A stretch of DNA of 64,000 nucleotides, from IMG/VR virus record IMGVR_UViG_3300032092_000021, positions 11,392-75,391 of that record, one strand, 5' to 3'. The notes under the pieces are model-generated. The model saw only the letters and a program-made list of their open reading frames with translations. It made no database searches and was not told the origin of the DNA. The stretch's first letter is position 1. Each line of letters starts with the position of its first letter. This document shows positions 8,919 through 34,200 of the stretch, piece by piece. A program made the translations under genes and the position numbers. The DNA is from a virus.

Positions 8919-8947
8919 TTAATTAACCTTTTATAATTTAAGTTAAA

Positions 8948-10618: not shown

Positions 10619-10649
10619 ATATTTGTAAAACCTTTTAACTTTTAAAACA

Positions 10650-10865: not shown

Positions 10866-10892
10866 TTATAAATTTTATAAACCAACAACAAA

Positions 10893-12675: not shown

Positions 12676-12692
12676 CGTAAATTAGTAATAGT

Positions 12693-12878: not shown

Positions 12879-12882
12879 TATT

Positions 12883-13178: not shown

Positions 13179-13196
13179 CTATTAAACTTATATAAA

Positions 13197-13391: not shown

Positions 13392-13621
13392 TGAAGAAAA
13401 ACATACCTAAAATGGATATGGGAGGTCTCTACACAGGAGCATCTATGTCTCGTGACGTAGAGAACCAACCAATATCTGGGTATGGTACTTCTGAACCTAG
13501 CAGGTGTCCACCTGATTGTGGCAGTAAAACCGCTCCTAAATCTAAGAGCGGAGGCATTGACTACAAACAAAGGAGAAAACAACAGGACAAAATAAAGCCA
13601 TCAAACTGTCGTAGAAAATAA
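13391..13621 (+). CDS. small basic protein with KMDMGG motif
   Basis: 76 aa, coupled on both sides. Confidence 0.6.
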   Translation: MKKNIPKMDMGGLYTGASMSRDVENQPISGYGTSEPSRCPPDCGSKTAPKSKSGGIDYKQRRKQQDKIKPSNCRRK

Positions 13622-14325: not shown

Positions 14326-14327
14326 TT

Positions 14328-14777
14328 ATGGAAAATAATGTTTTAAGGAGATCCCTAAAGACTGGGTCACAACAATCACAGACCGCGTCTTCTAGCACCA
14401 AAGGTGCTGACATGGGTAAACTTGTTTCAGAATTTTTGGAAGCAGTAACTTCTGTACACAAAGCTCATCTCAAAATTACAGGTCCTGGTTCATATGCTGC
14501 ACATACAGCAATGGGTGCGTTTTATGATGAAATCGGAGATCTTGCTGACTCTATTGCTGAGTCATACCAGGGAGTAACCGAGACGTTGTTGGATATTCCA
14601 GCAACTCAGCAAGCTTCTTGCAGTAGTGCTGCAGAATGTGTAAATTTTTTGAATAGTCTTTACCAAAAGGTGGATGCTGCTCAAAAAGCATGTGCTTATT
14701 CTGAGATTATTAATGACCTAGACAATGTCAAGTCACTGATTAATAGCACTAAGTATAAACTGATTTTCTTGAAATAA
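14328..14777 (+). CDS. ferritin/Dps-like four-helix-bundle protein (DUF5856-like)
   Basis: H..H....SYAAH.A....YD....L.D...E.YQG and C-terminal I......YKL.FLK. Confidence 0.7.
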   Translation: MENNVLRRSLKTGSQQSQTASSSTKGADMGKLVSEFLEAVTSVHKAHLKITGPGSYAAHTAMGAFYDEIGDLADSIAESYQGVTETLLDIPATQQASCSSAAECVNFLNSLYQKVDAAQKACAYSEIINDLDNVKSLINSTKYKLIFLK

Positions 14778-14849
14778 TTTGGAAGTGAGCTAATCATTTC
14801 CTATATTAACTATATATTTTTGTTTGTAACCCTTTAATTTTTTAAAACA

Positions 14850-16208: not shown

Positions 16209-16223
16209 TATTTGACTAATAAT

Positions 16224-16260
16224 AAAAAGGGAGAGGGAGTTATACTCTCCTCTCCTTTTT
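16224..16260 (+). terminator. rho-independent terminator
   Basis: AAAAAGGGAGAGGGAGT-TAT-ACTCTCCTCTCCTTTTT imperfect hairpin with U-tract. Confidence 0.8.
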
Positions 16261-16273
16261 AATTTATATACAC

Positions 16274-16834
16274 ATGGAGAAACATCAGTTAGCTTTAGAT
16301 ATTCCTGATACCTTATCAGGTTGCATATTCCGAGTAGTTGACGCTAGTATTTATAGCTCAGCTGGAGTAGTAGATTGTACCAGATTGGATATAACTCCTC
16401 CTGGTTTTACATCTCCTTTTTATGCGTCTAACCTAGAGACAGGGTTTATTGCAAATCTTACCGCTTGCAATGTAGGACTTCAAACAGCTAACTGTGGGAA
16501 TACCTATAATGACTTTGTAGATGGTGTCTATAATGTAAAGTATAGCATCAATAACAGCACTGAGGTTTATGTTGAGTATAATCATTTGAGAATTACTTCT
16601 GCATTAAACCAGATAAATGATCTACTTTGTTGTTTAAATTTGCAAGCATGTGACCCACAAGGTCCTGTAAGAGATAAACTAAGAGAAGTTCAATTGCTTG
16701 ATACTTTTTTGAAAGCAGCTAAAGCAAAAGTAGAATACTGCAACAGTATAGACCAGGGTATGGATATGTACAGATATGTAGTAAAGAAATTAAACAAACT
16801 TGCTTGTGGCTGCGGTTGTTCATCATGTAACTAA
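16274..16834 (+). CDS. putative tail hub / fibre-attachment protein with Cys-rich C-terminus
   Basis: 186 aa; beta N-domain (DGVYNVKYSI) plus helical C-domain ending CGCGCSSCN. Confidence 0.5.
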   Translation: MEKHQLALDIPDTLSGCIFRVVDASIYSSAGVVDCTRLDITPPGFTSPFYASNLETGFIANLTACNVGLQTANCGNTYNDFVDGVYNVKYSINNSTEVYVEYNHLRITSALNQINDLLCCLNLQACDPQGPVRDKLREVQLLDTFLKAAKAKVEYCNSIDQGMDMYRYVVKKLNKLACGCGCSSCN

Positions 16835-16849
16835 TTAAACCAATATATT

Positions 16850-17002
16850 ATGTCACAGTGTCCAAATTGCGGAGCAGCTATGAGCTGCGGATGTCAAAAG
16901 AAAGTACTTCCTAATGGAAAAATAGGATGTGCTAAATGTTATAACCCAGCACCTGCTGCAACACAAACCACAACTGAAAAAATTGATAACACCAGCTCAT
17001 AA
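16850..17002 (+). CDS. small Cys-rich protein (50 aa; CPNC, CGC, CAKC), not in ORF track
   Basis: Translated by hand: MSQCPNCGAAMSCGCQKKVLPNGKIGCAKCYNP...; TAATG coupling to 17002. Confidence 0.7.
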   Translation: MSQCPNCGAAMSCGCQKKVLPNGKIGCAKCYNPAPAATQTTTEKIDNTSS

Positions 17003-18942
17003 TGGCACTTATCTATAAATTAGAATCCTGTTATCCCGATTTAAATGATGACATGTACACGTCATCAAATTTGTCGGCTTACTTAAATAAGTATATAAAT
17101 ATTTGTGGTGGGTGCTATAAGGTTTTACCGGCATCGGGAAATCCCTTTTTGTACATCATTGAATATACAGGAGCTGATTATGATACTTGTCAAGAGTGTT
17201 ATGGGAATTCTATAGATGCCGATTGTGATGAGTGTCCTCCTTCTTATACAAAGTTTGCATTAGAAAATGGAGATGCTGCTTGCAGAAATTCAGAATTTTG
17301 TGAGATAGGTTCTGAGGAACCACTACCAGGTCAAGCTGATTGTGGTAAAATTGACTTCTTTTTCTACCTAGATAACTCAGGAAGTATTTCAGATCCTAAC
17401 TGGGTTGTAATGCTGAATGGTGTAATTTCAGCAATTGATACATTTAATGCTCAAAATCAGTTTGCAAATGGCAGTCTGAGAATGGGGATTAGCTGGTTTA
17501 ATAGCTGTAATCGGATTGCTATTGCACAAGAACTAACAGGTGATTATCTTACGGTAAAGTCTACGGCGGAAAATCTTAGAGATAATAGACCTACTCAAGG
17601 AAGCACTTTTCCATATTACGGTTTTATTCTTACATACGATCATATTACAGACACCGCGTATGGAAGAGATGATGCCGATAAAATAGTATCTTTTGTTTCT
17701 GATGGTGGTTATGGTGAATGTCCTGGTACAACGCTGCAACCTCTAATAGATCAAATGAAAGCGGGGACATATTCTGGACCCGAAGCACCTTTTCCTATTT
17801 TTCCTTCAGGAACAGCAACGTGCTGTGCAAATACTACACCTTTTGAGATAAGATTTATTTCTGTAGGTATAGGTAGCGGTATTAGTCAGCCTCAGTTGCA
17901 AGCTATTGCTAGCTCACCTAATGGTTTAGGGCAAGGTAATTTTTATATAGCAGATACTTTTGAGGACTTTACTCCTATTGCGCAAGATATTGCTAATAGT
18001 CTTGTTTGTCTAAATCCATTACCTACAGTAGCTCCTGGATACAGTGTTGTTCCTGTCGGTGAATGTTGCTATAGACTAACAAATTGTGAAACGGGTATTC
18101 AGATATATTCCAATAGCGATTTAGCTCAATATGTTGGACAGACTGTAAATATTAGTGGGCAGGATGGATGTTTTACAGTAGTACTTACAGACCTTACGTG
18201 TGAGAATGCGCAGGAGGTAACTATAACTAATACTTACGGTAGCTGCGAAGTATGTTTACCATCATATAAGCTTTATAACTGTAAAGACCTAAGCGTAACT
18301 CTTCAAACAGCTAATGTACAATTTGAGACACTTTTAGGAAAAACTGTAAAGCTTGTTGAGTATCCTGTTGACTGTTGGCAAGTGGGACCTAATGAACAAA
18401 AAACATTACCACTTCAATCACTTACTCCAAGCGGTCAACCTTTTGAAACATGTATACAATGTGATCCTGAAGAATTTGGTTTAAAAAACTGTGTCAACGG
18501 GGTATCTGTATTAACTACAGTTGATCTTTCAGCCTATATAGGAAAGGTGATTAAAGTAGACAATTTCCCAGGACTTTGTTTTACAGTAGACGATAATCCA
18601 TGTGATTGCTTAGAGATAAGACTTAACAATCAAGTTTATAGTATTAACAGAGAAGCTAATCTTTTTAACGGCAGACCTTACTTTCAGTTTTCGACTATAA
18701 ATAATCTGCCTATTGTTATAGCATACGATAGTTCTCAAAACAGATGGGAAGCATATAATCCAGTTACTCAAGATATTTATTTTTATTCTAACTTAGATAT
18801 AGAATGTCCTACGACAAGTTTGTGGATAAAGTTAGATCCAAGTTTTCCTGGAAATATTACTACACAAATCTGCCCATTGCCTATATTGAATATATCACCA
18901 ACAGAAGAATTTAATGACTGTGAGTGTTGTGTAAATTGTTAA
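17002..18942 (+). CDS. Cys-rich appendage protein with a von Willebrand A (MIDAS) domain
   Basis: DFFFYLDNSGSI (DxSxS), QGST, FVSDG and SVGIG vWA motifs at about 17350-18000, flanked by Y.L.NC...CxxC repeats. Confidence 0.75.
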   Translation: MALIYKLESCYPDLNDDMYTSSNLSAYLNKYINICGGCYKVLPASGNPFLYIIEYTGADYDTCQECYGNSIDADCDECPPSYTKFALENGDAACRNSEFCEIGSEEPLPGQADCGKIDFFFYLDNSGSISDPNWVVMLNGVISAIDTFNAQNQFANGSLRMGISWFNSCNRIAIAQELTGDYLTVKSTAENLRDNRPTQGSTFPYYGFILTYDHITDTAYGRDDADKIVSFVSDGGYGECPGTTLQPLIDQMKAGTYSGPEAPFPIFPSGTATCCANTTPFEIRFISVGIGSGISQPQLQAIASSPNGLGQGNFYIADTFEDFTPIAQDIANSLVCLNPLPTVAPGYSVVPVGECCYRLTNCETGIQIYSNSDLAQYVGQTVNISGQDGCFTVVLTDLTCENAQEVTITNTYGSCEVCLPSYKLYNCKDLSVTLQTANVQFETLLGKTVKLVEYPVDCWQVGPNEQKTLPLQSLTPSGQPFETCIQCDPEEFGLKNCVNGVSVLTTVDLSAYIGKVIKVDNFPGLCFTVDDNPCDCLEIRLNNQVYSINREANLFNGRPYFQFSTINNLPIVIAYDSSQNRWEAYNPVTQDIYFYSNLDIECPTTSLWIKLDPSFPGNITTQICPLPILNISPTEEFNDCECCVNC

Positions 18943-18952
18943 AATAAAAGAA

Positions 18953-20155
18953 ATGACTACTTCCTGTATATGCGTAACTCTAAATAGTTGTTTAACGGGA
19001 TTACCTGTTTACTATTATACGTGTAAGCAGTCGTCTCAACAAACTGTTTTTATTACGGGATTAGCTCAGGGTCAGTTAATTGAAATTAATGATGCAGCTA
19101 ACTTTCCTGAGACGTATTATACTTTCCAAAGTTTTTGCACAATACCCGGCGTAATATCTAATGCATGTAGAGCATGTACCGATTCACCTAATCAAATAGA
19201 AGATGACGCAGGACTCTCTATAAGCTTTTGGAGTAAGTCTAATGAAGCAACATGCCCAACCGATAACGCATTTAATGATGTGTATGTGCTTACTAATTGC
19301 TTAGCTAATGTAATAGTTAATAACAGTAATGTAGATTCTATTCAAAACTCCCCGTTGCTAGCTTTAGTTACATCTAGTGATCTGTATCTGTATACAGATA
19401 TGATTGTTAAGCTTGACGGGTATGATGATAATTGCTATAAGGTTTCTGGTCCATTTACACCTGGCGAGGGTGCCTCACTAAGACCTACTTATACAATAGT
19501 AAATGCGTATAGTACTTGTGAGTGCTGTCTACCTTTTCCAGCAGAACCTAGTTGTTGTGAGATACCTAAGTATACACAGAAACCTGCAAAAGATTTCTTT
19601 AGAATAACAGTATCTGATGCTGAGATTAAGGCAAACACAAACTTTGCAAACAACTACTATAAGTTGTTTATGGGTATAAAGCACGGAGTTCACAGCTGTT
19701 GCACAGGTATAGACTATGATCAACTCTGGATAAATAAAGAGATAAGTGATCTAGAAAGTATTAACTATAGTACTTGTGAGGTGATTCTTCCTACTCTATG
19801 TCTGTTTGTTACTGGAAATGATATCTGTGGATCTCAGGTTGCAACTTATAATGACTTTATCAATGGTAAATGGTCATTTAAGTTTACCCGTGAAACAGGT
19901 ATAAATGGTATCATTTATTGGGACATTCAAAACAGTTATTGGGTAATTGTTAATGAGGATACAGGTGTTATAGCAGCTAAGTTGTTGATAAACAGTGATT
20001 ATCCTATTGGTACAAATGATCAATGGGTTGTTGTAAATAAGTCAGCGTGTTTGTCACCTGACTGCGGGTTATCTACATGGACAGTAGATTGTTCTTACTA
20101 TGATGCAGATCCATGCGATAATTGTAACGAACCTGAAAATGTAGTAGCAGAATAA
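18953..20155 (+). CDS. Cys-rich structural/appendage protein
   Basis: 400 aa. Shares the Y.LTNC...DL..Y....VK...C..V...TCxxC repeat and the NG..F.F...I.WD...W domain with 17002. Confidence 0.6.
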   Translation: MTTSCICVTLNSCLTGLPVYYYTCKQSSQQTVFITGLAQGQLIEINDAANFPETYYTFQSFCTIPGVISNACRACTDSPNQIEDDAGLSISFWSKSNEATCPTDNAFNDVYVLTNCLANVIVNNSNVDSIQNSPLLALVTSSDLYLYTDMIVKLDGYDDNCYKVSGPFTPGEGASLRPTYTIVNAYSTCECCLPFPAEPSCCEIPKYTQKPAKDFFRITVSDAEIKANTNFANNYYKLFMGIKHGVHSCCTGIDYDQLWINKEISDLESINYSTCEVILPTLCLFVTGNDICGSQVATYNDFINGKWSFKFTRETGINGIIYWDIQNSYWVIVNEDTGVIAAKLLINSDYPIGTNDQWVVVNKSACLSPDCGLSTWTVDCSYYDADPCDNCNEPENVVAE

Positions 20156-20179
20156 AAAAATAATTAGTATATTAAAGAT

Positions 20180-21814
20180 ATGGCAGTTCCTATTAAATCA
20201 AACAACACGCAGCAGGGATGTAATCCCATTTCATCTAACTGCGTTGTATGGCAAGGACCAGATATTCCATGCATTAACTTATGCACTGGGGATTCTGTTA
20301 GCGACGTTGTTGCTAAGATGGCAACAGAGTTATGCGAGATAGCGGATCAACTAGATATTAGTCTTTTAGATCTATCTTGTTTTAACCCGCTATGTCCAAC
20401 TCCACAGAACTTTAGGGATGTAATGCAAATCATTATTGATAAGATTTGCGCATTAGAAAACGGAACTACTACTGATGGTGTTAATACTTCAGGTTGTCCG
20501 TCTGATTGTGAGATAGCGGTAGCACCGTGTCTTCAGTACACTGACTTTCTTGGAAACACTGTTGTAAGTTTACCTATTAAGGATTATGTAATTCTGATTG
20601 GCAATAGAATTTGTACAATACTTACTAGTATTGCTAATCTTCAGACACAGATTGATAGCCTTGATACAAGAGTTACAAATCTTGAAAATGGTTCTGGTGG
20701 TGGTAGTGGGTCTTCGTTTAATGTAACAAGTCAATGTGTTACTAATGGGTCCGTTACTCTAGCAGAGTATATACCACTTTTAGATGCAGCATTTTGTGAG
20801 TTACAAGGAAACTTTGGATCTCAGCAAGATTATCTTAATGCTTCTTCAGTAGCTGCTTGTGTTACTACAAACAGTGTTCAGATGACAAATCCTCCACAAC
20901 TTGTTGGAGCTTTACAGGGATGGTTACCATCTCCACAAAGTGCTATGCAGCAAATTCAAAATTTGTGGGTTGCCATCTGTGATATTAGAACAGGACTTAC
21001 TAATCTTCAAGATCAATTGACTGAGTGTTGTGCACCAGAAGCAGCTTGTCCCACAACTCTACCTAGACCTACTGTATATGTAAATAAAACCACTCCTGAT
21101 GATTTCTTGTATTTCAGAGTTTCTGGAAATACAAATCCAGCAAATACTGGAATTGTTCTTGCTGATGGTAGCCAGTGGGCACTCGTAAGATTTGAAGGTA
21201 CAGTTACACCATCATTTAATGGAAGTAGTCAAAGCATAACGCAGAATATACCAAATCCATCACTTTCTAGCAATATTGTTGATTACACTGGTAGCGAGAA
21301 TCTTGCTAATAGATTCTTGAATGTTCCTGGAGCATCTATTTCTTTAGTTGTTTCAGTTGTTGGAACATTCTTCTATAGAAATCTTACTACAAATCAAGAA
21401 TGTAGTGTGTCAGCAGCAAATAATGCAAACATACCTAACCAAAGTATTGCTACTTGTCCACTCTTACCTGGTCAAGCCAATCAACAATTTAATGTTACAC
21501 CTGTAACTATTACTTGTAATAATCCACAAGGTTCATCAATTACAGTATCATTAGGTGTGTTCCCGCCTGTAACAGCTCCAGGTGTAACAAATGCTAACAC
21601 GCTTGTAAATATTACTTATAATAGTACAGCTACAGGTACACAAGTTACAATACCTTACTCATTTAGCAACGGTGGCAGCATTGCTCTTAATAATATTGCA
21701 TGTAACTCAAGTGTGACATTTAATGCGATTAGTACTACACAAAATGGTCAAACGGTTCAGTGTGCTAACTCTAGTTCAATACCTATTCCTCCGGACACAA
21801 CACCATTGGGATAG
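20180..21814 (+). CDS. putative tail fibre protein (Cys-rich N-domain, coiled coils)
   Basis: SNCVVWQGPDIPC...GDSVSDVV motif, heptad stretch IANLQTQIDSLDTRVTNLE and a beta-rich C-terminus. Confidence 0.6.
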   Translation: MAVPIKSNNTQQGCNPISSNCVVWQGPDIPCINLCTGDSVSDVVAKMATELCEIADQLDISLLDLSCFNPLCPTPQNFRDVMQIIIDKICALENGTTTDGVNTSGCPSDCEIAVAPCLQYTDFLGNTVVSLPIKDYVILIGNRICTILTSIANLQTQIDSLDTRVTNLENGSGGGSGSSFNVTSQCVTNGSVTLAEYIPLLDAAFCELQGNFGSQQDYLNASSVAACVTTNSVQMTNPPQLVGALQGWLPSPQSAMQQIQNLWVAICDIRTGLTNLQDQLTECCAPEAACPTTLPRPTVYVNKTTPDDFLYFRVSGNTNPANTGIVLADGSQWALVRFEGTVTPSFNGSSQSITQNIPNPSLSSNIVDYTGSENLANRFLNVPGASISLVVSVVGTFFYRNLTTNQECSVSAANNANIPNQSIATCPLLPGQANQQFNVTPVTITCNNPQGSSITVSLGVFPPVTAPGVTNANTLVNITYNSTATGTQVTIPYSFSNGGSIALNNIACNSSVTFNAISTTQNGQTVQCANSSSIPIPPDTTPLG

Positions 21815-21867
21815 ATCCGTCACCATAAGCATTTAAACTTATAAAATAGTAATTAAAAAGATATACA

Positions 21868-22425
21868 ATGGCTTGCTCAAATAATACAAGTACTAGCACA
21901 AATGGTGGATGCGGATGTGGATGTACTCCTGCTACTCAGGTAGCGCCTGCGTGTGCACCAAAATGCGCGTCATCGGTTGCAGGAAACTGCATGGAGTATG
22001 TCAATGCTGCATGTACTGTAATGAATGATAGCATACTAGAGTATAGCATTCAGAAAGGTGATACAATAGAATCGGTTCTTCAAAGACTTGTTCTTGCTAT
22101 TACTAACCCGGGATGTGTTACAGCAAATGGTATATCATATTCTCCGATTCCTTTACAAAGTACAGCGACTACAAATTCTACTGTAAATATAACTTGGGGT
22201 GCATCTGATGCTAATCCTAGTGGAGATCCTGCATATGAAGTTCAGTATAAAGTAAACGATCCTATTATAGGAACATGGACATCGCTTCCATTACAAAGTA
22301 CTACTACAGCTACAATTACAGGATTACTTGCAATGACTTCTTATGAAATACGAGTAAGACCTGTATATCCAAATACACTTAATGGAAGTTGTTTTTCAGT
22401 AACTATAATTGTAACTACCGCGTAA
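21868..22425 (+). CDS. Cys-rich protein with C-terminal fibronectin type III domain
   Basis: VNITW...AYEVQYK....W......ATITGL...TSYEIRVRPV is a canonical FN3 pattern. Confidence 0.75.
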   Translation: MACSNNTSTSTNGGCGCGCTPATQVAPACAPKCASSVAGNCMEYVNAACTVMNDSILEYSIQKGDTIESVLQRLVLAITNPGCVTANGISYSPIPLQSTATTNSTVNITWGASDANPSGDPAYEVQYKVNDPIIGTWTSLPLQSTTTATITGLLAMTSYEIRVRPVYPNTLNGSCFSVTIIVTTA

Positions 22426-22426
22426 T

Positions 22427-25400
22427 ATGGCGTTCACCGCACAACAAATTGCCGCATTAAATCCCACCAAGTATGCCGCTGGTGATTATGGTAGCGTAAC
22501 TTTAAATGGTGTTGACTATCCTACTCTTGATATAGGAAATTTAACAGTAACATGCGGAAACTTTACTGTAACAACCCTTGCTGGTATTCTTCCTGGAATT
22601 ACACATTGCATTAATGGGACACAGTGGGCAAGTGCAGCTGCTTCTAATACTCCTGCGTGTGCTTTTGTTGATCCTGTTGCAGGCGGTAATGGAAGTATTG
22701 TTAGTGATATGTCTTTATCCCAGTCAGGGACATATAGTACTAAAGTTGTTAGAGGTTTACTTTTTAATTACCATGCTATTGCGGTAATTAATGCTTATCT
22801 AGCTACTCAAGCTGGTAACTGGAGAGTACTTACAGAGTGTGACGCTAAGCATATGAAAAACGCTTGGTCATATCCTGCTGGAGGTGGTTATGGTGGTTGT
22901 TCGGGTACTACTCGTTTTAATGCTATTGGTGTATCATCAGGTAATGTAGCAGGCAATACACCTGATAGATGTGCAAATACAGGTACAGTTACTGACTCAA
23001 CTGGTTTAGGTGCAGCTTTATTTACTAAGCTTGCTATGCCTAATGTAAATGCACCTAACGCTGCTATTACTAATAATAGCGGCTATAGTTTAGTGACAAC
23101 TGGATTTATTAATGCAGGCGGTACTACATCTGGTGCGGATAATGGAAATTATTGGACTAGTACACTTGCAGATAAACAATTCAGTCCGTCACTTAATGCT
23201 GCTAATAATGCTTGGAGAGGTTTTGCTGGATATGGTGCTGGCACCACCAGAGAAACTTACATGGACCACATTCCAAGTGATACTAATGCAGGAGGTATAG
23301 ATAGGGGATATGCTATAAGACTTTGTAGAACAAAGGTAACCCCTTATGCTTTTTCGGCTAGTCAAAATGTTCCTGCTGATACTGGAACTTTAGTACAAGG
23401 TCAGGCTATAGTAGTAAATGTAGCTCTTGATACTAGTACTGTTACTAGTACTATCGCCTACACAAACAGTATGGGTACTTGGAGAATTAACAAGTGCCAA
23501 GATGTTGTAAATGGAGTTACTGCTAGAGCAGGTACTGATATTGATCCTCCTGGTTGGGATAAGTTATTAAGTCCTGATCCGGGTAGTGGTGGTCCTCCAT
23601 TATCTGGTAATATTTTAGTTAGATTCTCAGGTACTCCGGCAGCTGCAGGAACATTTACTTGGAATCTTCCTATAGGTTGTCAAACAATTTCAATAACTAG
23701 AACTGTAGAGGCTCCTGAACCTGATATATCAACATTAAACTGTGCAGGTGCAAATGGTACTCTTACTCAAGATATTATAGAGGGTATTGCTGTTTCTCCA
23801 GGTACTACATTTACTGTAACTTATACTGGTGGTAACGGTATAGCATATCCCTTACAAACTTTTAACTCTACAGGAGTTACAGGTTTAGTTGCAACTCTTG
23901 CTGCTGGAACTTTAAGTAATGGAAACGGATCTCTTACGTTTACTGTTACTGGAACTGCTTCAGCAGCTGGTACTGCTGTATTTCCTATAACATTTGCAGG
24001 AGCATCATGTAATGCAAATATTACAGTTGACCCAGATAATGGTACTATCACAGGATTGACAGGTTGTACTAATGCAACTTTAATTAACGGACCTCTTGTT
24101 GCAAATACTGCAGTTGCTCCGGGAACAAGTTTTACAATAAACTATCAGGGTAATAACGGTCTTACTTTTAACCCACAGACAGTTACGTCAACAGGTGTTA
24201 CTGGATTGACTGCAACTTTTGCTGGCGGTACTTTTCCTAGCGGTAATGGTACGTTTAGTTTTACTATTACAGGTACTCCTGTTGGTAGTGGTACTGCATC
24301 ATTTGCGGTAAGTTTTCCTAGTCCAACTGGTGGAACAGTTACTTGTACTGTTACTTTAAATGTTGATCCAGACGGACCTGCTATTACAAGTTTAATATGC
24401 TCACCAACAAATCTAGTAGGTGGTCCTATTTTAGAAGGAATTGCAATATCAGGTGCATCATTTACAATATCATATAACGGTGGAAATGGTTTATCTTATT
24501 CTAGTCAAACCATTACATCCACAGGTGTTACAGGAATAACAGCAACTCTTAGTGCAGGTACTTTAGCAAACGGTTCCGGGCAGCTTACATACAATCTTTC
24601 AGGAACACCTGCCGATAATGGTACTGCTGCGTTTCTTATAAGTTTTCCTACACCAACAGGAGGAACTACAACTTGTACAGTAATTGTACCTGTTACTCCG
24701 GTTGTTTTACTAAGCTACATAGGTTGTGATAATGCAACTTATTCTCCGTCATCTCCACCATATACTATAGATACGCCAATATCAACCAACGTATCTATAC
24801 CATATACCTCAACACAAGGTGGTATTCTTGCAGCAGTTTCATATACCTCATCAGGTGTAACGGGATTAACTCTTACGTTAAATTCTACTACGGTACAAGA
24901 TAACGCTAACGGAGTATTTACAGGAACTCTATCTGGAACACCAACTCAAACAGGAAATGCAGTATTTACAATATGTGTTGGTGGATATTTAGGTCAGGGG
25001 CAAACATGCTGCACACTGACAATACCTATAGAGATTCCTCCACCAACTATTGGTACACTAGAATGTCAAAATGCTAGCTTTAATGGACAGATTCAGTATC
25101 CTCAAAGTTATAGTGTTGGGAATAATGTTACAATTATAATTCCATATACCGATGGAAACGGTGGAGCATATCCATATACTTCTGCTACATCCACTGGTGT
25201 AACTGGACTTACGATATATACCGGTCCTGGAAACTTTGCAGGATCACCATCACTTCCTCAGAATGGTACATTTACATTTACAGTAATAGGCACACCATCT
25301 GGTCCAGGAGTAGCTAACTTTACCATCAACATAGGTGGTCAGACTTGTGAGATTTCTTTAACTGTTACAAATTTACCGGGGACAGTAAATTCTTTAAATT

Positions 25401-28400
25401 GTACAGGAGCCACAACAGATATTCCAGTACAGTCAGGTCAATCTGTTTCTGGTATAACCATGTCAATACCTTACACAGGTGGTAATGGTGGTTTTTATAA
25501 CACACAAGTACTCCAGTCTATTCCTTCAGGTGTATTTGCTACACTGCCTGCTGGTAATCTTGTTAATGGAAATGGTACACTACAGTTATCTCTTTCTGGT
25601 ACAATGCCTATTGGTTTTATACCGGTTACGTTTCTGTTTCCATTTCCTGAAGGATCTGCTCCTTGTACACTTACATTAACTCCTCCTGTTGGACCAGGAA
25701 CAGCAGACTTAGATTGTAATAGTTTAATTGTTGTAGGTTCAGTTACATATCCTGATCCAATACCGGCAAACAATCCTATCATCCTCTACATAAACTATGA
25801 TAATAGTAATGGAGGATCATATAATGCTGCAACATTCCCGTCTTCACTTGCATTTAACGGGGTGGCTGGATTAACAGCAAGTCTAGCAGCTGGTCAGTTT
25901 CAATTAGGTTCTGGTACTTTACAACTAACTGTAACAGGAACTCCTCAAAGTTCTGGAATAGCATACTTTGATGTTACAATAGGTGGAACCACATGTACTC
26001 TTGAAGTACCCGTTGGTGCACCTGCTGGTGAAATAGACACTTTAAACTGTGAACCTAGTTCAATTTCTGTAACTGGAACTTTAACCAATGGGTCACCAGC
26101 TGTAGGAGTAACATTTACGGTTCCTTATATAGGATCTAATGGTGGTACTTATTCAGGAAATACTGTTAACTCAAGTAGTATTGTAACGGGACTTACTGCT
26201 ACACTTGGACCTGGTTTATTTAACCAACCAAATGGAAGCGTTACATATACTGTATCTGGAACACCACTAGGTTCAGGTCCTGCTACATTTCCTATTACTG
26301 TTGCGAACCAGTCATGCATAATACTTCTTACAGTAGATCCTATACCAGGAACTGCTAATCTAGACTGTGCTAATTCTACGTTTAGTGCAAATCCTGTACA
26401 AGGTTTTTCTACTCTTATAACGGGAGGTATTCCTTATACCAATGGTAACGGAGGATATTATGATCCTTATACTGATACTGTAGACGGATTAACGTTAACC
26501 ATTAACGATGGGTATTTTAATAATGGTTCAGGATCTGTTCCATTTACTATATCTGGTACAGCCACTGTATCAGGACCAATTACATTTACTAATATTCAGG
26601 TAGGTGACCAAACTTGTAATTTAACTATTATTGTTTCGGATCCCCCTCCTATTATTGATGACTTACTTTGTGATCAAGCAGTAATTTCAGGGTCGTTAGT
26701 AATTAACCAATCTGCATCAGGAGTTACCATTACTATTCCATACAATGGAAGTAACGAGCAACCTTATCCTGAGGATAGCAGCAACTCTACGGGAATTCCT
26801 GGTTTAGTTGCTACTACACCTGCTGGCACATTAACTGATCCTACAGGAGTTCTTGTATACACTGTAACAGGTACTCCACTCGCATCTGGAGTTGCTACAT
26901 TTACTATTACTATAGGTACGCAGACTTGTGTAATCAGCATACCTGTAAGTCCTCCAAATTTCTTTGGTCCATCAAATCCTTCTCCTTGTCAGGAGGTAAC
27001 CTATAATGATCCTGGTTGTGAAGTACTTGCAACCACCTGTACTATTCTTTTAAATGGTACAGAAGTGTCATACAGTACACTAAGTACTACAGATCCTTGT
27101 CAGGTATCTTTCCAGGTTCCTTGTGATACTGAGCCAAACTCAATTGCTGAGGTTACCTTTTTAGATTGTGAGGATAATATAATCACGATTGAAAACTTAC
27201 CTATTGGTGATGTTTTACCTGCATATCTTCTTCAAAACTTTGGTTGTCCAGGTGATCAAATTACAATAATTGATACCGGATGCATCTATACACCCCAGGT
27301 AAATGATATAGAAGTATGTTCAACTTTAGGTTGTGTTCCAATTACTACAGGTATAAATATCTTTAATAATCCACCACTACCCTGTAGTTTTACAGTTACA
27401 TTACCTTCTGTAATACCTGTAGCATCTTATCCTGCTACAGTACAGATAGTAGTTAATGGAGTTTCCGGAGAACTATTAAGTTTAGACTTTGAGCTTCAAA
27501 ATTGCGGAACTGCTGAAAACAGTTTTGATCCTATTCAGTGTGCTCTACCCAATGCTGAGGTAACATTTACAAATCCTGGTTGTGATATAGTAAACCCTGA
27601 TCTTACTAGTATTCTTGTAGATGGGGTATCTGCTACAATTACAGATATAAATACAACATCACCGTGCTCAGTTAGTTTTGTTCTTCCTGTTGGTGCTGGA
27701 CCTGGTCCTGTTGATGTTGAGTTTTTTGATATACTGGGTAATGTTCTTGGCACAGAAACTTATTCAATAGCTGCAGAAGGTGTTGGTTCCTTATATACTG
27801 TAACATTTACTCCACAGACTGAAGGTTGTCATAGAATATACTTTAGAACTACTGAAGTAGAATACTGCTATTATCAAGCTGAAGGTCCTTTTGAGATTGG
27901 TGTACCAGTAACAGTTACAATTGATTTGCAGGATTATGCTGAGTGTTTGGTTACTACCCCTCCTACTAGTTGTGATACCTTTATAACTGTTAATGGTTAT
28001 ATACAACCATGCTGTAATGCTGAAGATACTTTAGACAATAGAGTAGAACTTAACTGTGTACAGTATCTTACAACAGATTGTGGGCTATACTCTGTAGAGT
28101 GTTTATCATCTAACTGCGGTACGTTTACTAAATCAAACTGTTTTGCCTCAGGATGCACAGGAATAAATGACTTAACTGAATATGCATTTAGAGGTAATAA
28201 GAGTATACCTAACGACAAAGTTTATGTATGCTCTGAAGGAAATGGTGTTCAAAATACACCTAACTCTACCTATACGATAACTAAACTTTCTTCTGTAAGT
28301 GCATCAATTTACGGAGATAATATATTACCAAGTTTTCCTTTTGGTCCTGCAAACTGGTCAGATGGTGGGGGTGCTGAATGGAATCCTGTTGGTGTTTGTA

Positions 28401-28960
28401 CAGATTTTCTAGGTGACCATTTATTTGTTCCAGAACTTTCTAGCACTGGTATCTCAACAACACCTGGTGCTATACTTACAAATGGACTAATATATGAGTT
28501 TACTTTTATAATGGCTTCTGTTTTTCCTACTACTATTACTTTTAGTTCAGGTATAGGAAACTCAGTACCAGTAGCTTGCCCAGGAGGTGTTTATCCACCT
28601 ACAGGAACAACTTACCAGATAACGTCGCAGAATGGTAAATTAACAATATCTATCCCTTCTATAGGAAAAGGTACATGCTTTAAACTATTATCTCTCAGAG
28701 AAGTTACACCTAATGTTAGAACTACATGCTGCACTTGTTTTGGTGGCGAAGTTCAGATAGAGTTTCCTGAAGAAGGTCCTTACTCTATAGATGTATATTA
28801 TACTCAGTGTACAGATGAAGGTCCTCAGATTGCTACTGCTACATTAACCAATACTACAAGTGTTGTGAACTGCTGTACCTATGGAAGCATATTTCCTGTA
28901 AATAAGTTTGATATTCAGTATATAACGTCAATAATTTATACAGATACTCCAGCTTGTTAA
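22427..28960 (+). CDS. giant adhesin-like fibre: N-terminal FISUMP (Fib_succ_major)-like domain, 10 Ig-like repeats, IPT/TIG-like repeats and Cys-rich C-terminus
   Basis: INGTQW, GLLFNY, GNWRV, NSGYSLV..G, GNYWTST and GYAIRLC match the FISUMP pattern; repeats read directly from the translation. Confidence 0.7.
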   Translation: MAFTAQQIAALNPTKYAAGDYGSVTLNGVDYPTLDIGNLTVTCGNFTVTTLAGILPGITHCINGTQWASAAASNTPACAFVDPVAGGNGSIVSDMSLSQSGTYSTKVVRGLLFNYHAIAVINAYLATQAGNWRVLTECDAKHMKNAWSYPAGGGYGGCSGTTRFNAIGVSSGNVAGNTPDRCANTGTVTDSTGLGAALFTKLAMPNVNAPNAAITNNSGYSLVTTGFINAGGTTSGADNGNYWTSTLADKQFSPSLNAANNAWRGFAGYGAGTTRETYMDHIPSDTNAGGIDRGYAIRLCRTKVTPYAFSASQNVPADTGTLVQGQAIVVNVALDTSTVTSTIAYTNSMGTWRINKCQDVVNGVTARAGTDIDPPGWDKLLSPDPGSGGPPLSGNILVRFSGTPAAAGTFTWNLPIGCQTISITRTVEAPEPDISTLNCAGANGTLTQDIIEGIAVSPGTTFTVTYTGGNGIAYPLQTFNSTGVTGLVATLAAGTLSNGNGSLTFTVTGTASAAGTAVFPITFAGASCNANITVDPDNGTITGLTGCTNATLINGPLVANTAVAPGTSFTINYQGNNGLTFNPQTVTSTGVTGLTATFAGGTFPSGNGTFSFTITGTPVGSGTASFAVSFPSPTGGTVTCTVTLNVDPDGPAITSLICSPTNLVGGPILEGIAISGASFTISYNGGNGLSYSSQTITSTGVTGITATLSAGTLANGSGQLTYNLSGTPADNGTAAFLISFPTPTGGTTTCTVIVPVTPVVLLSYIGCDNATYSPSSPPYTIDTPISTNVSIPYTSTQGGILAAVSYTSSGVTGLTLTLNSTTVQDNANGVFTGTLSGTPTQTGNAVFTICVGGYLGQGQTCCTLTIPIEIPPPTIGTLECQNASFNGQIQYPQSYSVGNNVTIIIPYTDGNGGAYPYTSATSTGVTGLTIYTGPGNFAGSPSLPQNGTFTFTVIGTPSGPGVANFTINIGGQTCEISLTVTNLPGTVNSLNCTGATTDIPVQSGQSVSGITMSIPYTGGNGGFYNTQVLQSIPSGVFATLPAGNLVNGNGTLQLSLSGTMPIGFIPVTFLFPFPEGSAPCTLTLTPPVGPGTADLDCNSLIVVGSVTYPDPIPANNPIILYINYDNSNGGSYNAATFPSSLAFNGVAGLTASLAAGQFQLGSGTLQLTVTGTPQSSGIAYFDVTIGGTTCTLEVPVGAPAGEIDTLNCEPSSISVTGTLTNGSPAVGVTFTVPYIGSNGGTYSGNTVNSSSIVTGLTATLGPGLFNQPNGSVTYTVSGTPLGSGPATFPITVANQSCIILLTVDPIPGTANLDCANSTFSANPVQGFSTLITGGIPYTNGNGGYYDPYTDTVDGLTLTINDGYFNNGSGSVPFTISGTATVSGPITFTNIQVGDQTCNLTIIVSDPPPIIDDLLCDQAVISGSLVINQSASGVTITIPYNGSNEQPYPEDSSNSTGIPGLVATTPAGTLTDPTGVLVYTVTGTPLASGVATFTITIGTQTCVISIPVSPPNFFGPSNPSPCQEVTYNDPGCEVLATTCTILLNGTEVSYSTLSTTDPCQVSFQVPCDTEPNSIAEVTFLDCEDNIITIENLPIGDVLPAYLLQNFGCPGDQITIIDTGCIYTPQVNDIEVCSTLGCVPITTGINIFNNPPLPCSFTVTLPSVIPVASYPATVQIVVNGVSGELLSLDFELQNCGTAENSFDPIQCALPNAEVTFTNPGCDIVNPDLTSILVDGVSATITDINTTSPCSVSFVLPVGAGPGPVDVEFFDILGNVLGTETYSIAAEGVGSLYTVTFTPQTEGCHRIYFRTTEVEYCYYQAEGPFEIGVPVTVTIDLQDYAECLVTTPPTSCDTFITVNGYIQPCCNAEDTLDNRVELNCVQYLTTDCGLYSVECLSSNCGTFTKSNCFASGCTGINDLTEYAFRGNKSIPNDKVYVCSEGNGVQNTPNSTYTITKLSSVSASIYGDNILPSFPFGPANWSDGGGAEWNPVGVCTDFLGDHLFVPELSSTGISTTPGAILTNGLIYEFTFIMASVFPTTITFSSGIGNSVPVACPGGVYPPTGTTYQITSQNGKLTISIPSIGKGTCFKLLSLREVTPNVRTTCCTCFGGEVQIEFPEEGPYSIDVYYTQCTDEGPQIATATLTNTTSVVNCCTYGSIFPVNKFDIQYITSIIYTDTPAC
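23723..26956 (+). repeat. 10 tandem ~100-115 aa repeats (L.C...Y.GGNG..Y.....STGVTGL...L..G.....G.L...V.GTP...G.A.F.I..GG.TC)
   Basis: Counted by hand in the 2177-aa protein. Diverged at DNA level; each repeat has one Cys near each end. Confidence 0.85.
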
Positions 28961-28970
28961 TATAAATATG

Positions 28971-29000
28971 AGTCTAGCTTTTGTTGGTTTAAGCAAGACT
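28971..29000 (+). ncRNA. candidate regulatory hairpin (AGTCTAGCTT-TTGTTGGTTT-AAGCAAGACT)
   Basis: Near-perfect 10-bp stem with one A/A mismatch; the loop is antisense to leaders at 7678, 10878 and 16835. Function is inferred. Confidence 0.4.
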
Positions 29001-29005
29001 GCTAC

Positions 29006-29035
29006 AAAGAGCCTTGGGTAAAACCAAGGCTTTTT
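29006..29035 (+). terminator. rho-independent terminator closing the appendage operon
   Basis: AAAGAGCCTTGG-GTAAAA-CCAAGGCTTTTT. Confidence 0.85.
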
Positions 29036-29080
29036 GGTATATTTGTTTTTATAATCGACTAAAATTTACTAAATTATATT

Positions 29081-29674
29081 ATGATGAGGAACTTTAGAAA
29101 ACCGGATCTTGGAGCTCCTAGATTTAGACCAAAAGCTTTCAATGTTTTAAACAAAGAACTCTGGAAAGAATTTAAGGAGAAGCATCCGAAGTATAAGGAT
29201 CTTACTTATATGGAATTCAAGAAGATTATAAAACTAAGTAACCAGAAGTTTTGGGAAAAAGTAATCTCTTATAGAGATGGTGTTGAGTTACCCGAGAGTC
29301 TAGGTTTTATTTTTATAGGTACGTGTACATCTCAGAACTCTAAAAGAAAAAACATAAACTACGGCAAATCAATTAAGTACGGCTTTGAGGTAAGCAATAA
29401 CAATCTTATTTCTGACGGAAAGCTAGCTAAGATTTTTTACACAAACTACGCGGTTAAGTATAAAGTTAGAGATAGAGAAATTTGGACGTTTACCCCGTGT
29501 AGATCTTTTAAGAGACAGGTTGCTAAGACATACCCAGAAAACTGGGAAAAGTATATTGAGGTTCCGGATAATCTTAAGATATCCAGATTGTATAATGAAC
29601 TGATTTCTAAAGACATAGAAAAGAAAGAAGTCTCATCAGCAATTGTAAACTATAACGAATTTGATTTAAGCTAA
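29081..29674 (+). CDS. basic IHF/HU-like protein of the crAss-like tail module
   Basis: Helix followed by GVELPESLGFIFIG (HU-like beta arm); located before the tail ring genes. Confidence 0.5.
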   Translation: MMRNFRKPDLGAPRFRPKAFNVLNKELWKEFKEKHPKYKDLTYMEFKKIIKLSNQKFWEKVISYRDGVELPESLGFIFIGTCTSQNSKRKNINYGKSIKYGFEVSNNNLISDGKLAKIFYTNYAVKYKVRDREIWTFTPCRSFKRQVAKTYPENWEKYIEVPDNLKISRLYNELISKDIEKKEVSSAIVNYNEFDLS

Positions 29675-30348
29675 TGACTACAATAGGAGAAAGCATATCA
29701 AGAGTTAGAAACTTGGTAAAAGCAGCAAAGCAAGATGCTTTTATGACTGATAGATTTATCTACAGTCTGATTGTAAAGTATGCTAAGTTGTTGATTAAGA
29801 GACAAGACGCTCTTAATGTAAGACTTAAGTTTGCAAGTCTTTTTAGAACTCTTCCTTGTGTAGAGCTAATAGAGACGGATAGAGTAGAAGCTTGCTGCGG
29901 CAGTTTACCGGACACCTGTAAAGTAATGCGTACCAGGGAAAAGATTCCTGCACCCTTTGAGGGAGCTTATGGTGCTTTTATTAGAACTGTGTCATCCATA
30001 GACGGATCGGTTGAGGTTTATAGAACCCAACCTGCTCAATTTACATCTATGACCAAGACTACCGCTTTTAAGTACAACAAGCAGAAGTACTACTGGTACA
30101 TGAACGGTTATCTGTATTTGCCTAACATTGAATGGGAAAGCGTTTTGCTAGAAGGAATCTTTGAAGAAGACATTGCGATATTTACATGTGCTTCTAACGG
30201 AATCTGTAAGATTCGTCAAGATGAAGTGTTAGGTATACCAGATGATCTCTTTGCTGAAGTAGAGCAAAATGTAATAGCACAACTTATGGGAACAGTTCAG
30301 ATTCCTAATGATACTAACAACTCTGACAAACAAAACATTCTAAGATAA
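29674..30348 (+). CDS. tail ring / tubular protein
   Basis: 224 aa; TLPCVELIE, Y.Y.NGYLY, EGIFE and C-terminal D..N pattern; synteny. Confidence 0.6.
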   Translation: MTTIGESISRVRNLVKAAKQDAFMTDRFIYSLIVKYAKLLIKRQDALNVRLKFASLFRTLPCVELIETDRVEACCGSLPDTCKVMRTREKIPAPFEGAYGAFIRTVSSIDGSVEVYRTQPAQFTSMTKTTAFKYNKQKYYWYMNGYLYLPNIEWESVLLEGIFEEDIAIFTCASNGICKIRQDEVLGIPDDLFAEVEQNVIAQLMGTVQIPNDTNNSDKQNILR

Positions 30349-31262
30349 TGGATTATAACTATACCCTGAAATACAGGACTTTTGATTCTCTTCTTGAGGA
30401 TGTTAAGATGGATCTCAGAAACTTGTCAGCTGATACAAGTATTGAACCTGCGCAGCTTATCAAAGTAGCACGTAAGTGTAACTATGATCTTGGTCTTAGA
30501 ATTCAAAAAACTAGAGAGACTGTTCTTGAGATAGAGAAAAGCAAAGCTCGTCTTCCTGAAGATTTTCAGATAATGAACTTTGCACTTATCTGCGGTAACT
30601 ATACCGTTGTAGAAGTTCCTCCACAAGGAACTAATGTTCAAGAGATTGTACCTGGATATAGACCTTGGATTGAATCTAATACTTGTTCTGACTGTAATGG
30701 TACTTCACCGGAAACAACTTGTATGACTCAATGTGGCACTGACTATACTCTTGTTCAGATGGTCAATACAGTTAGGAGAGAGTTTAGAACTTTTTCTCCC
30801 ATATCATTTAGAAGTTCTCAGTTTGTAGATGTAGAGTGTCCTAATGCATGTTCACCAAGATGGCATAACAAAGATGAAGCTTATATCAAAGATGGTTGGG
30901 TGTACACCAACTTTGAAGACGGTAATCTATATATTAATTACCAAGCAGATATGGTAGATGATGAGGGTAATATTATTGTACCAGATCATCCTATGCTTAA
31001 TGAGTATTATGAATACTCACTCAAGAAAAGAATTCTTGAGAATCTTGTAATGGATAATGTGAATGTTACAGGACAATACCAACTTATTTCTGCAGAGCAC
31101 AGAGTTGCTAGAAACGCAGCATTCAGTATTGTTAATACTCCTAACTTCTCTGAGATGATGAGGGTGTGGGCGATGAACAGAAAAGCAATGTACTCTAGGT
31201 ACTACAATATGTTTAAGAGCCACTACCATCCTTTTAATTTAAGAGTTAATAACGCTGTTTAA
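30348..31262 (+). CDS. tail tubular protein (P22 gp4-like role)
   Basis: ARLPEDF and YTNFEDG.LYINY....DDEG...VPD motifs; located immediately before the stabilization/muzzle gene. Confidence 0.6.
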   Translation: MDYNYTLKYRTFDSLLEDVKMDLRNLSADTSIEPAQLIKVARKCNYDLGLRIQKTRETVLEIEKSKARLPEDFQIMNFALICGNYTVVEVPPQGTNVQEIVPGYRPWIESNTCSDCNGTSPETTCMTQCGTDYTLVQMVNTVRREFRTFSPISFRSSQFVDVECPNACSPRWHNKDEAYIKDGWVYTNFEDGNLYINYQADMVDDEGNIIVPDHPMLNEYYEYSLKKRILENLVMDNVNVTGQYQLISAEHRVARNAAFSIVNTPNFSEMMRVWAMNRKAMYSRYYNMFKSHYHPFNLRVNNAV

Positions 31263-31264
31263 TT

Positions 31265-34200
31265 ATGGCAAAGAAACAAGGTACAACTCCCGAATCAGGG
31301 ATTAGCTCTAACTCAGGATCTTTTACCAAAGGTCTTGTAAGAGACTTCGATGAAAACTTTGATCCAGAAAGTTCATGGCCTTATGCACGTAACGCTTCAA
31401 ACAATTCTAAAGAGGGTGACGTTGGTGTTTTAGGTAACGAACCATCAAACTCTGCATGTGGAGTTGCTCCCTATACAGTTATTGGTAGAATATTTTTATT
31501 TAATGCTTACTGGGCAATATTTTCTACAAATGATAGCGAGTCTGAAATAGGTGTGTATGATGAGTCGCTCTGTCAATACAGAACTGTAGTTAACCAGAAA
31601 TGTCTAAATTTTAGGAAACTAAAATTGATAACAGGTGTAGCTAAAGAAAACTTTGATTGTCAGTGGGCAGTTTACTTTGCTGATGGTAGAAATCCTGATA
31701 GGTACATAAACTTAGGTAATCCTACATTGTGGCCAGATACAATGTATATGGGTAACAACTACTACCAAAATCAGGTACTGTGGCCAGGTGTACAGTGGGT
31801 AAAAGATTGCAAAGATGTAAACGATTGTACAATTTGTGATCTTGTAAATCAGTTAGATTGTAATCAAATAAGAATTAATAAACTAGTTAAGACCCCTTGT
31901 GTCAGACTTAGCGCTACAGAGGGTGGTGGTAACTTAGCTAATGGTTCATATGTTGCTTTTGTAGCATATCTAGAAAATGGACAGAAGTATAGTGATTATA
32001 CATCTCCTTCTAATGTTCAACCTATTTTTGATCACGATAACTTAGGTGGAGCAATTACTGCTACCATATCCAATCTTGAAAATGAATCATTTACTGAGTT
32101 TGAACTTGTCATAGCAGCAACAGTAAATGGTCAAACTGTAGCTAGAAGAATAGGAATATATGCTTGCGATGACGCTCCTGTGACAGTATATTTAGATAGC
32201 ATTAATGACTCATTGACTACAGTACCTCTTGAGTTACTTCCTATAAGAACACCTCTTTATGAAACAGCAGACTCTATTTTTGAAACAGGTAGTTATCTAC
32301 TTAAGATAGGTCCTCGTACAACATTTGATTTTAACTACCAACCCCTTGCTAACCAAATTCAAGCTAAGTGGTCTATTGTAAGGTACCCTATAAACTATTA
32401 TAAGGATGGTGGTACAAATACCGGTTATATGCGGGATGAGGTTTACTCATTTTTTATCAGATGGATTTATGTAACTGGGGAAAAATCTAGGTCATATCAT
32501 ATTCCCGGAAGAATTGCGGACAGTAAAGATCTTACTGAGTCAATAGGCATCTATCCTACTGAATTAGAGTATGGTTTTGAAAAAGAAAATACCGCATCTG
32601 TAACAAGTACCACTTCATCTACTCTTTCTGATGGAGGTGTTGTAATTGCTGAAGGACAGATGGGTTACTGGGAATCTAGTGAAAAATATCCAGATAGAAA
32701 ACCTGAAATTTGGAATTCTAGCTATGATCCTAAATTGTCTGGTACAAGTCAAACAACATGGGATCTTTGTAACAAACCTATCAGACATCATAAGATGCCT
32801 GAAGATGTTATAAATAATAATGCAAATTATTCTAGAGCTATTACATTAGATGGTTCTGGAAATGTTGTTGCAAATCCTGGTTATACTGGCGCTACTCATT
32901 TGCAAGTAGTTGGTGTCAAGTTCTCAAATGTTAAACCTCCGGTTTATATAGATGATGATGGTAACGCACAAGTTGTTCCGGGTATATCTGGTTACGAAAT
33001 ACTTCGTGGATCTAGAACAGGAAATAAATCTGTTATAGCAAAAGGTATTATAAACAACATGCGTGTCTATAAAGACATCGATGATACTTTAGGTCTTTAT
33101 GCAAACTATCCATATAATCCTGTAAAAAATGCTCCTCAACCATTTGGGTTACCGACAATAGATCCTACTCTATCATTTAAAGAAGTTAATGGTAGTGGTG
33201 GTAATTATGAAGAAGTTACCGAGGCACATGTAAAGAAAAACTTTTTTACATTCCACTCTCCAGATACTAGTTTTTACAAACCATTTCTTTCTGTAAAAGA
33301 ATTAAAAATATATACAGAGTTAGGTAACTCAAAAAATGTAAAAGGAACTTTTGACCCTGTACCAGGACACCCTAAACAAAAGTTAATAACAAATGTTGCG
33401 TCTACTGCAGCTTTACTTCTAGGTATAGCAGAAGCTGTATTTGCAATGAAGGGTGATGAAGAATGGATAGCTGAGGGTAACAGAGCTTTGAATTTAGGTT
33501 TTTATGGTGCTTTTGGTGGAGCTTTAACTGCTAATGTCGGCGCATGGTCTGCACCTTTTGTGGGTCCACAAGCTGGCGCTGCAGTACTTGCTCCTCTTCA
33601 AACTGCAGAACTAGCTGCGCAAATAGGAACCAGTACTGCAGCACAAGCTTCTTTAGGTGGCTTTAGTTCATTGGGTGGTGCTTCTTTGGTTACAGGTAAC
33701 AATGCCCGACTATACAATTTAGGTGCACAGGTAGCAAATGTAGGGTATACTGCAGCAACGGGTGGTTTTATGGGACCAGGTTTAACTAAAGTTCACAAAG
33801 AAGGTACTTTATCTGGTATGCCTACACCGATTGCTGCATTTGCGGCATTACCTACTTTGTACACATTGGCTACTGCTGCTGCAGCTAAGACACTAGATTT
33901 AATTTATGCTTTTGTAAAAGCTCGTAGTTATGTTTATAGATACGCGTCTCATGGGTTTCTTCATAAGGATAATGTACCACCTTCAAATAGAAGACATTAT
34001 ATAAATGATTCAGCTTATTTGAATGAAGGTTTTAACATGTTTGCTAATTTTAAAATTAACAACATTAATAGATTTAAAACTACATTATTAAATACTAATA
34101 CTGATGTACCTGTTCCAGCTATTACAGATAATACAGGTGTCAGTCTATCTAGAAATGTTAGTCCTAGTATTCTTGATACGTCCGATGGTAGAACTAAATA

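Follow-up and report, generated by a model that had tools for sequence, protein, structure and literature searches.

The window analysed here, 64,000 nucleotides in length, comprises bases 11392-75391 of the genome record, a 75.4-kb phage contig, and carries all its long genes on the + strand. Family searches place the portal gene at 4828-7590 and the major capsid protein gene at 8948-10576, and the gene order of the window is that of Cellulophaga phage phi14:2, the common order being portal, ~400-aa protein, capsid protein, small genes, ~340-aa protein, tail/fibre genes and giant virion proteins. The phage is crAss-like by architecture only, the identity of its capsid protein to that of any cultured phage being very low (22-28%; 28% in the case of Leptolyngbya phage Lbo-JY46); it looks like a virulent phage, and its host probably does not rely on Shine-Dalgarno-led initiation. 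Capsid genes 70-95% identical to that of the window occur in metagenome-assembled genome (MAG) bins of many phyla (L223-L238, with labels including Micavibrio, Rickettsiales, Clostridium, Campylobacteraceae, Chitinophagaceae and Bacteroidales), probably as mis-binned phage contigs, and the 5 of 16 bins assigned to Bacteroidota give only a weak hint of host identity. No tRNA genes were found in the window; a complete 135-kb relative (G012) harbors a cluster of nine tRNA genes including tRNA-Met (CAT) (L196:16584-18125, L197:1959-2042). The features of the window on which the analysis bears, together with one site located upstream of it, are as follows.

7645-7652, + strand: promoter-like box TATATTTG upstream of p407
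7678-7691, + strand: leader box TTAAACCAACAAAA, ending 3 nt before the p407 ATG (7695), 14-nt complement of 28979-28992
7695-8918, + strand: p407, scaffold-like, between the portal and major capsid genes; predicted target
10878-10888, + strand: leader box TAAACCAACAA before the p339 ATG (10893)
10893-11912, + strand: p339, conserved protein; predicted target
16835-16843, + strand: leader box TTAAACCAA before the p50 ATG (16850)
16850-17002, + strand: p50, small Cys-rich protein, in the same operon as the hairpin; predicted target
22427-28960, + strand: last gene of the tail-fibre operon (2177 aa), ending in TAA, with the hairpin in its 3'UTR
28961-29036, + strand: whole 3'UTR element (hairpin, A-rich spacer, terminator); candidate RNA of ~65-76 nt
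28971-29000, + strand: seed hairpin AGTCTAGCTT / TTGTTGGTTT / AAGCAAGACT, arms at 28971-28980 and 28991-29000
28981-28990, + strand: hairpin loop TTGTTGGTTT, 10 nt
29005-29036, + strand: intrinsic terminator of the tail-fibre operon, 13 pairs followed by a T-run (TTTTT)
29038-29045, + strand: promoter-like box TATATTTG of the p197 operon
from 29081, + strand: p197 (197 aa), first gene of the next operon
genome C1:10393-10404: fourth site GCTTAAACCAAC, abutting the ATG of a 123-aa gene (p123)

The hairpin that an earlier note on this DNA had placed between the giant fibre gene and its terminator is indeed there: it starts 10 nt past the TAA of the 22427-28960 gene, its stem is interrupted by a single A-A mismatch, and the second hairpin, at 29005-29036, has the G+C-rich stem-loop and U-run of an intrinsic (Rho-independent) terminator. 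The fold of 28958-29045 is markedly more stable than that of shuffled sequences (z = -5.3), and the bases of the loop have a mean probability of being unpaired of 0.89. No family in Rfam 15 was matched at gathering score, the best matches reaching at most 21 bits against cut-offs of 41-100. The conserved ACAAG spacer was considered as a separate signal and dropped, as it corresponds to the A-tract pairing with the U-tract of the terminator. The sequence AAAACCAAGG, which spans the loop and 3' arm of the terminator (window 29013-29028), is one base off the leader box but is probably incidental because, although shared by L002, it is absent from most relatives.

The central claim of the earlier note concerned the antisense relationship between this hairpin and the leaders of upstream genes. 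The 14-nt perfect match before the scaffold ATG is confirmed, TTTTGTTGGTTTAA (28979-28992) being the exact reverse complement of TTAAACCAACAAAA at 7678-7691, and so are the 11-nt and 9-nt matches before the genes starting at 10893 and 16850. The description of the 14-nt stretch as the loop needs amending, as the loop has only 10 nt and the match takes 2 nt from each stem arm. Likewise, the three sites listed as targets were right, but a fourth was overlooked because it is located 1 kb before the window: GCTTAAACCAAC, before p123, pairs with 28983-28994 over 12 nt, that is, with the loop and four bases of the 3' arm. Of the targets, p407 has a putative scaffold role, deduced from gene order and composition only; the major capsid gene is not a target. 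Allowing for up to 2 mismatches, the 14-mer occurs 6 times in the window against 1.7 expected, and none of 100 shuffles reached 6. The predicted duplexes range from -11 to -23 kcal/mol, compared with -6 to -10 kcal/mol for three control leaders, and span about -18 to +6 of the start codons, with both the loop and the target sites predicted to be mostly unpaired. The 14-nt and 12-nt matches of this genome are exceptional, the typical contiguous pairing comprising 7-10 AU-rich bp.

The comparison was extended to 80 loci carrying relatives of p197 (41-97% identity) and to 18 whole related contigs. All 19 relatives examined, whose identity to the window phage is 41-60% for p197 and 60-88% for the major capsid protein, have one hairpin followed by a terminator on the structural-gene strand. 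The hairpin lies in the 3'UTR of the operon ending before the p197 block and either immediately precedes the p197 homologue or is separated from it by one gene. The loop consensus, (U)UUGUUGGUU(U), is nearly invariant, whereas the arms are wholly different among genomes yet always paired (e.g. AGTCTAGCTT, TCCGTTT, GTTACAG, ATCACG, GTAGAG, TCAGAAT, AGAGGG and GGAGG). Across 16 distinct hairpins, 79 of the 80 cells formed by the five loop-adjacent pairs are canonical, whereas shuffles yield 38 +/- 4, and each stem position shows 2-6 pair types; when 46 distinct elements with 32 arm strings are considered, the combined flank-shuffle test gives p = 1e-26. Pair counts were scripted on the arms taken from each fold, since a covariance-model search (362 kb) also caught leaders and chance matches; a MAFFT alignment failed to keep the 3' arms of the hairpins in register. 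The stem covariation that the earlier note had proposed to look for is therefore present, around a loop that hardly varies and in every relative examined. We conclude that the hairpin is a real, family-wide RNA element and that it is very probably functional. It is of note that one clade (G011, G012, G013 and G015; e.g. loci L186, L195, L201 and L212) carries a conserved ~400-aa gene between the hairpin-terminator and the p197 homologue, because of which these loci at first seemed to lack the hairpin. In G013 (L201:19405-19460, - strand), the 3'UTR with the hairpin also contains a TTAAACCAAC box ~45 nt before it; as no start codon follows this box, it might be a cis partner of the loop.

The position of the element relative to neighboring genes is also informative. 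The hairpin starts 1-16 nt past the upstream stop codon in 13 of 15 genomes, the genes upstream of it often being non-homologous among genomes; elements equivalent to that of the window measure 53-89 nt in 14 of the 15 relatives measured, and terminators follow the hairpin in relatives too. Promoter boxes occur upstream of the hairpin in only 1 of 18 genomes and downstream of the terminator in 13 of 18. The short distance to the stop codon and the lack of an upstream promoter box identify the hairpin as a 3'UTR element, and it is thus the conserved 3'UTR of whichever gene ends this operon. Of the two origins that the earlier note had envisaged for a small RNA, the 3'UTR-derived one agrees with these data (13 of 15 genomes), whereas a stand-alone gene does not, there being no promoter box for it.

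The earlier note had itself offered the alternative of one protein-binding site in inverted orientation. Read in this way, the motif would be recognised in double-stranded DNA by a DNA-binding protein of the phage or the host, with one orientation near several gene starts and the opposite one where the operon ends. Such a protein would account for the same invariant 8-11-bp sequence, free of covariation, at all sites, but a DNA site needs no flanking inverted repeat and the stems covary strongly. Moreover, G-U pairs, which make up 32 of 305 pairs, favor one strand: of 40 elements, 32 fold better as the + strand than as the - strand (p = 7e-5). This asymmetry makes sense only for RNA or a single-stranded nucleic acid and indicates that the structure is selected on the mRNA-sense RNA rather than on duplex DNA.

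The leaders complementary to the loop are conserved as well. Nearly all of 65 relatives of p407 (47-97% identity) have retained (A/T)AAACCAAC in the leader, at a distance of 0-10 nt from the start codon, and in whole genomes the box, (A)AACCAAC, precedes the orthologues of p407, p339 and p50 in nearly all cases and sometimes also p123 and a ~275-aa gene. The box is often repeated in tandem, with 2-4 copies; the capsid gene leader has no box in these whole genomes. Hairpin and AAACCAAC leaders are thus conserved together, the boxes being kept before the same orthologous genes, which is the co-conservation that the earlier note had named as a check of its proposal. The enrichment at starts that it had also called for is clear across 15 genomes: AACCAAC in sense orientation is enriched 16-fold at -25..-1 of starts (53 copies versus 236 elsewhere, p = 4e-42), with only 2 antisense copies in leaders and none of the composition-matched 7-mers coming near this enrichment. 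The leaders of p339 orthologues in G004, G006, G008 and G009 carry 2-4 tandem AAACCAACAA copies (e.g. L168:4291-4330, - strand; L177:100-149, + strand), which would let several loops, or other ligands, bind one mRNA. The box is also found at internal cistrons with no promoter in the vicinity, and its distance to promoter boxes varies, which places its function at the level of RNA or translation; on the same grounds, a role of the box as a promoter or transcription-start element was dropped. Shine-Dalgarno sequences are complementary to CCUCC at the 3' end of 16S rRNA and lie ~5-9 nt from the start codon; AAACCAAC has no CCUCC complementarity, and its spacing of 0-10 nt does not agree with such a role. 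The close tie of the boxes to start codons and not to promoters, internal cistrons included, and their bias toward the sense orientation further argue against the DNA-site alternative, which we regard as very unlikely. A more trivial possibility is that the hairpin is a mere accessory stem of the terminator and that the leader matches arose by chance in an AT-rich genome, and by our own estimate some 14-nt inverted matches are expected in a 64-kb AT-rich window; however, about 45 distinct elements share the loop sequence on completely different stems, the p407 relatives retain the leader box, and the enrichment statistics, both for the 14-mer against shuffles and for the box at start codons, speak against chance. 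Judged by sequence comparison, this explanation is already contradicted by the conservation data, and we give it hardly any credence.

In these comparisons, therefore, both motifs exist, are conserved and are complementary to each other, and the box is tied to start codons. The reading that we favor, to which we assign a probability of roughly 0.55 on comparative grounds, is that of a 3'UTR-borne antisense RNA pairing with the initiation regions of assembly genes. The last ~65-76 nt of the tail-fibre operon transcript would fold into two hairpins, the first of which would expose an unpaired loop, UUGUUGGUUU (family consensus as above). This loop would pair in trans with the (A)AACCAAC(AAA) boxes 0-10 nt upstream of the start codons of the scaffold-like p407, of p339 and of the Cys-rich p50, and in this genome also of p123. 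The 3' end of the mRNA may act as such, or a small RNA may be processed from it, and pairing over the ribosome-binding region would change translation or mRNA stability, repression being the more likely direction. A base-pairing RNA covering the ribosome-binding region would be the simplest mechanism; that loop and box actually pair, that a stable small RNA is formed and that regulation runs in the direction given are inferences. In agreement with this reading, the hairpin loop is the only conserved sequence in these genomes that is complementary to the box, with a seed core UUGGUU(U) facing (A)AACCAA, although the conserved pairing core comprises only 7-8 nt, and genome-wide scans of initiation regions for duplexes with each genome's own loop rank the p339, p407 and p50 orthologues at the top in most genomes. 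Together, the conserved hairpin, the covarying stems and the conserved start-codon boxes lend comparative support to the small RNA tuning the translation of assembly proteins in trans that the earlier note had put forward, whereas its suggestion that fibre-operon transcription is thereby coupled to head assembly is speculation.

The data can also be read in terms of a protein. According to this explanation, the hairpin is an RNA site whose loop is kept for recognition by a protein, with possible roles in 3'-end stabilisation, processing or a boxB-like control of the adjacent terminator, the complementarity to the leaders is coincidental, and the AAACCAAC box serves, independently of the hairpin, to enhance translation in a host not using Shine-Dalgarno pairing. 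A conserved loop on covarying stems is indeed also typical of protein-binding hairpins, and the box is placed where a ribosome-binding element would be. Several of our tests are in line with this explanation. A reversed loop reaches similar best duplex energies against the A-rich leaders, so that duplex energy alone is not evidence of pairing, and swapping hairpins among genomes revealed no genome-specific matching of hairpin and leader (mean rank 7.4 versus 8.0 expected, p = 0.63). Covariation between loop and leader is not seen, nor is it demonstrable because both cores are invariant; among the few loop/box variants, one is compensatory (G017, loop G to U and leader C to A) and four are uncompensated (G005, G011, G015 and G016). 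In addition, a loop made of U and G only automatically complements A/C-rich leaders in composition, which raises the odds of a chance match. On the other hand, we roughly estimate the chance of two independently conserved motifs being exactly complementary over 7-11 nt at no more than 1e-3, rising to about 1 in 56 per register with composition fixed. In this genome, moreover, genome-specific bases of the stem add to the complementarity for two targets, and the hairpin lies at the operon 3' end and not, like nut sites, near a promoter. On balance, we consider recognition by a protein with coincidental complementarity possible but unlikely. Public transcript data were also consulted: 5-8% of the words of 24000-33000 recur in four riverine metatranscriptomes, and the metatranscriptome Logan contigs matching 10600-30599 are short, 90-99% alike and of low depth, none of them bearing on 28961-29036; assembled contigs do not show transcript starts, ends or strand.

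Several known systems resemble the antisense RNA proposed here. In enterobacteria, the 3'UTR-derived small RNAs CpxQ, SroC, DapZ and RaiZ occupy the interval from a stop codon to the intrinsic terminator of the same mRNA; RNAs of the CpxQ type carry a short conserved seed, usually in a single-stranded 5' segment, target the initiation regions of other mRNAs in trans, are encoded by host genes and depend on Hfq or ProQ. The element of the window is found in the same stop-codon-to-terminator position and has a conserved short seed complementary to conserved leader sites, as expected for 3'UTR-derived RNAs, and its proposed action in trans on initiation regions is also alike; it differs in that the seed is in a hairpin loop, the RNA and all its predicted targets belong to the phage and the host probably does without Shine-Dalgarno-led initiation. 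DicF of the Qin prophage is released by cleavage from the 3' portion of an operon transcript and has a terminator at its end; it pairs with translation-initiation regions, its targets being host genes (ftsZ and others) and its source a defective prophage. The present element shares with DicF its phage origin, its place in the 3' part of an operon, the terminator end and the predicted pairing with initiation regions, whereas its predicted targets are the phage's own late genes in an apparently virulent phage. The c4 RNA of P1/P7 and the CI RNA of P4 are phage-encoded RNAs processed from an operon transcript, whose exposed loops recognise by base pairing short boxes that recur in the same phage near ribosome-binding sites or inside transcripts; they control immunity or lysogeny genes of temperate phages, with targets downstream in the same transcript. 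Phage encoding and an exposed loop facing short repeated boxes of the same phage are features in common, but the element has no sequence or structural similarity to these RNAs, nor any Rfam match. Finally, the boxB of lambda nut sites, a short hairpin close to terminators in a phage transcript, combines a conserved loop with a covarying stem; it binds protein N, is near a promoter and is paired with boxA. The hairpin described here is similarly short, with a conserved loop, a covarying stem and a terminator nearby, but it is the last operon element before the terminator, and its loop is complementary to conserved mRNA boxes, which the nut model does not explain; as to a lambda-type nut site, the hairpin is not promoter-proximal and no conserved second box was seen beside it. 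By analogy, the element would represent a new RNA family whose nearest counterparts in principle are 3'UTR-derived small RNAs, DicF, P1 c4 and P4 CI. In virulent Pseudomonas phages, the 5' and 3' UTRs of phage operons give rise to small RNAs that are conserved within genera; these candidates were found by transcript mapping and their targets are not known (PMC10914365). The element of the window, unlike them, is known from sequence alone and comes with a predicted target set.

Closer to the window phage, the search for counterparts gave little: searched with blastn and tblastn, the region and p197 had no match among 50,697 phage records, the Leptolyngbya phage Lbo-JY46 has neither the leader box nor box enrichment, and phi14:2, despite the shared gene order, has neither the leader box nor a comparable hairpin, for which reason the published phi14:2 RNA-seq is not usable for this element. 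Sequence searches of PHROGs, Pfam and PDB gave no match for p407, p339 or p50, and the AlphaFold model of p339 (pLDDT 83) had no Foldseek match in PDB at E <= 0.001.

To our knowledge, almost nothing is known about post-transcriptional control in crAss-like phages, and the same is true of phages whose hosts initiate translation without Shine-Dalgarno pairing. If the pairing is true, it would establish a conserved RNA regulator, defined by its sequence and with a definite set of targets that includes the scaffold-like gene, offer a simple explanation for the strongly conserved leader box and provide a new RNA family for which viromes can be screened. A further-reaching version, which we put forward as distinctly improbable, is that the AAACCAAC box and the loop make up a private translation-control code in which one operon-end RNA acts on all boxed assembly mRNAs. 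In a host without Shine-Dalgarno pairing, the box would mark the assembly mRNAs, the 8-nt seed would be frozen, and the operon-end RNA would serve as a shut-off timer or as an activating adaptor; such a code would be the first case of a family-wide RNA regulon that virulent phages encode and direct at their own late genes.

Other elements in the leaders deserve mention. Given the TATATTTG box at 7645-7652, the p407 leader box falls within a short 5'UTR. In nearly all relatives, p407 is preceded by a conserved promoter block, TTTTAAAGTTTA ... (TTTG) ... TATATTA (window 7625-7663; also L081-L145, around 1400-1480), and the p407 box is found downstream of this block. A tripartite host-RNA-polymerase promoter has been reported upstream of the phi14:2 gene g092, the equivalent of p407 (bioRxiv 10.1101/2020.03.07.982082), and the p407 promoter block resembles this tripartite middle/late promoter of phi14:2. 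A second type of leader, (A)ACCTTTTAAnTTTTAAAACA, stands directly before the ATG after TATATTTG boxes (window 10615-10649, 14815-14849 and 8925-8947; genome C1 about 10055-10088), preceding a 71-aa and a 452-aa gene and, in a looser form, the capsid gene; phi14:2 has a similar leader, AACTTAAACA-ATG.
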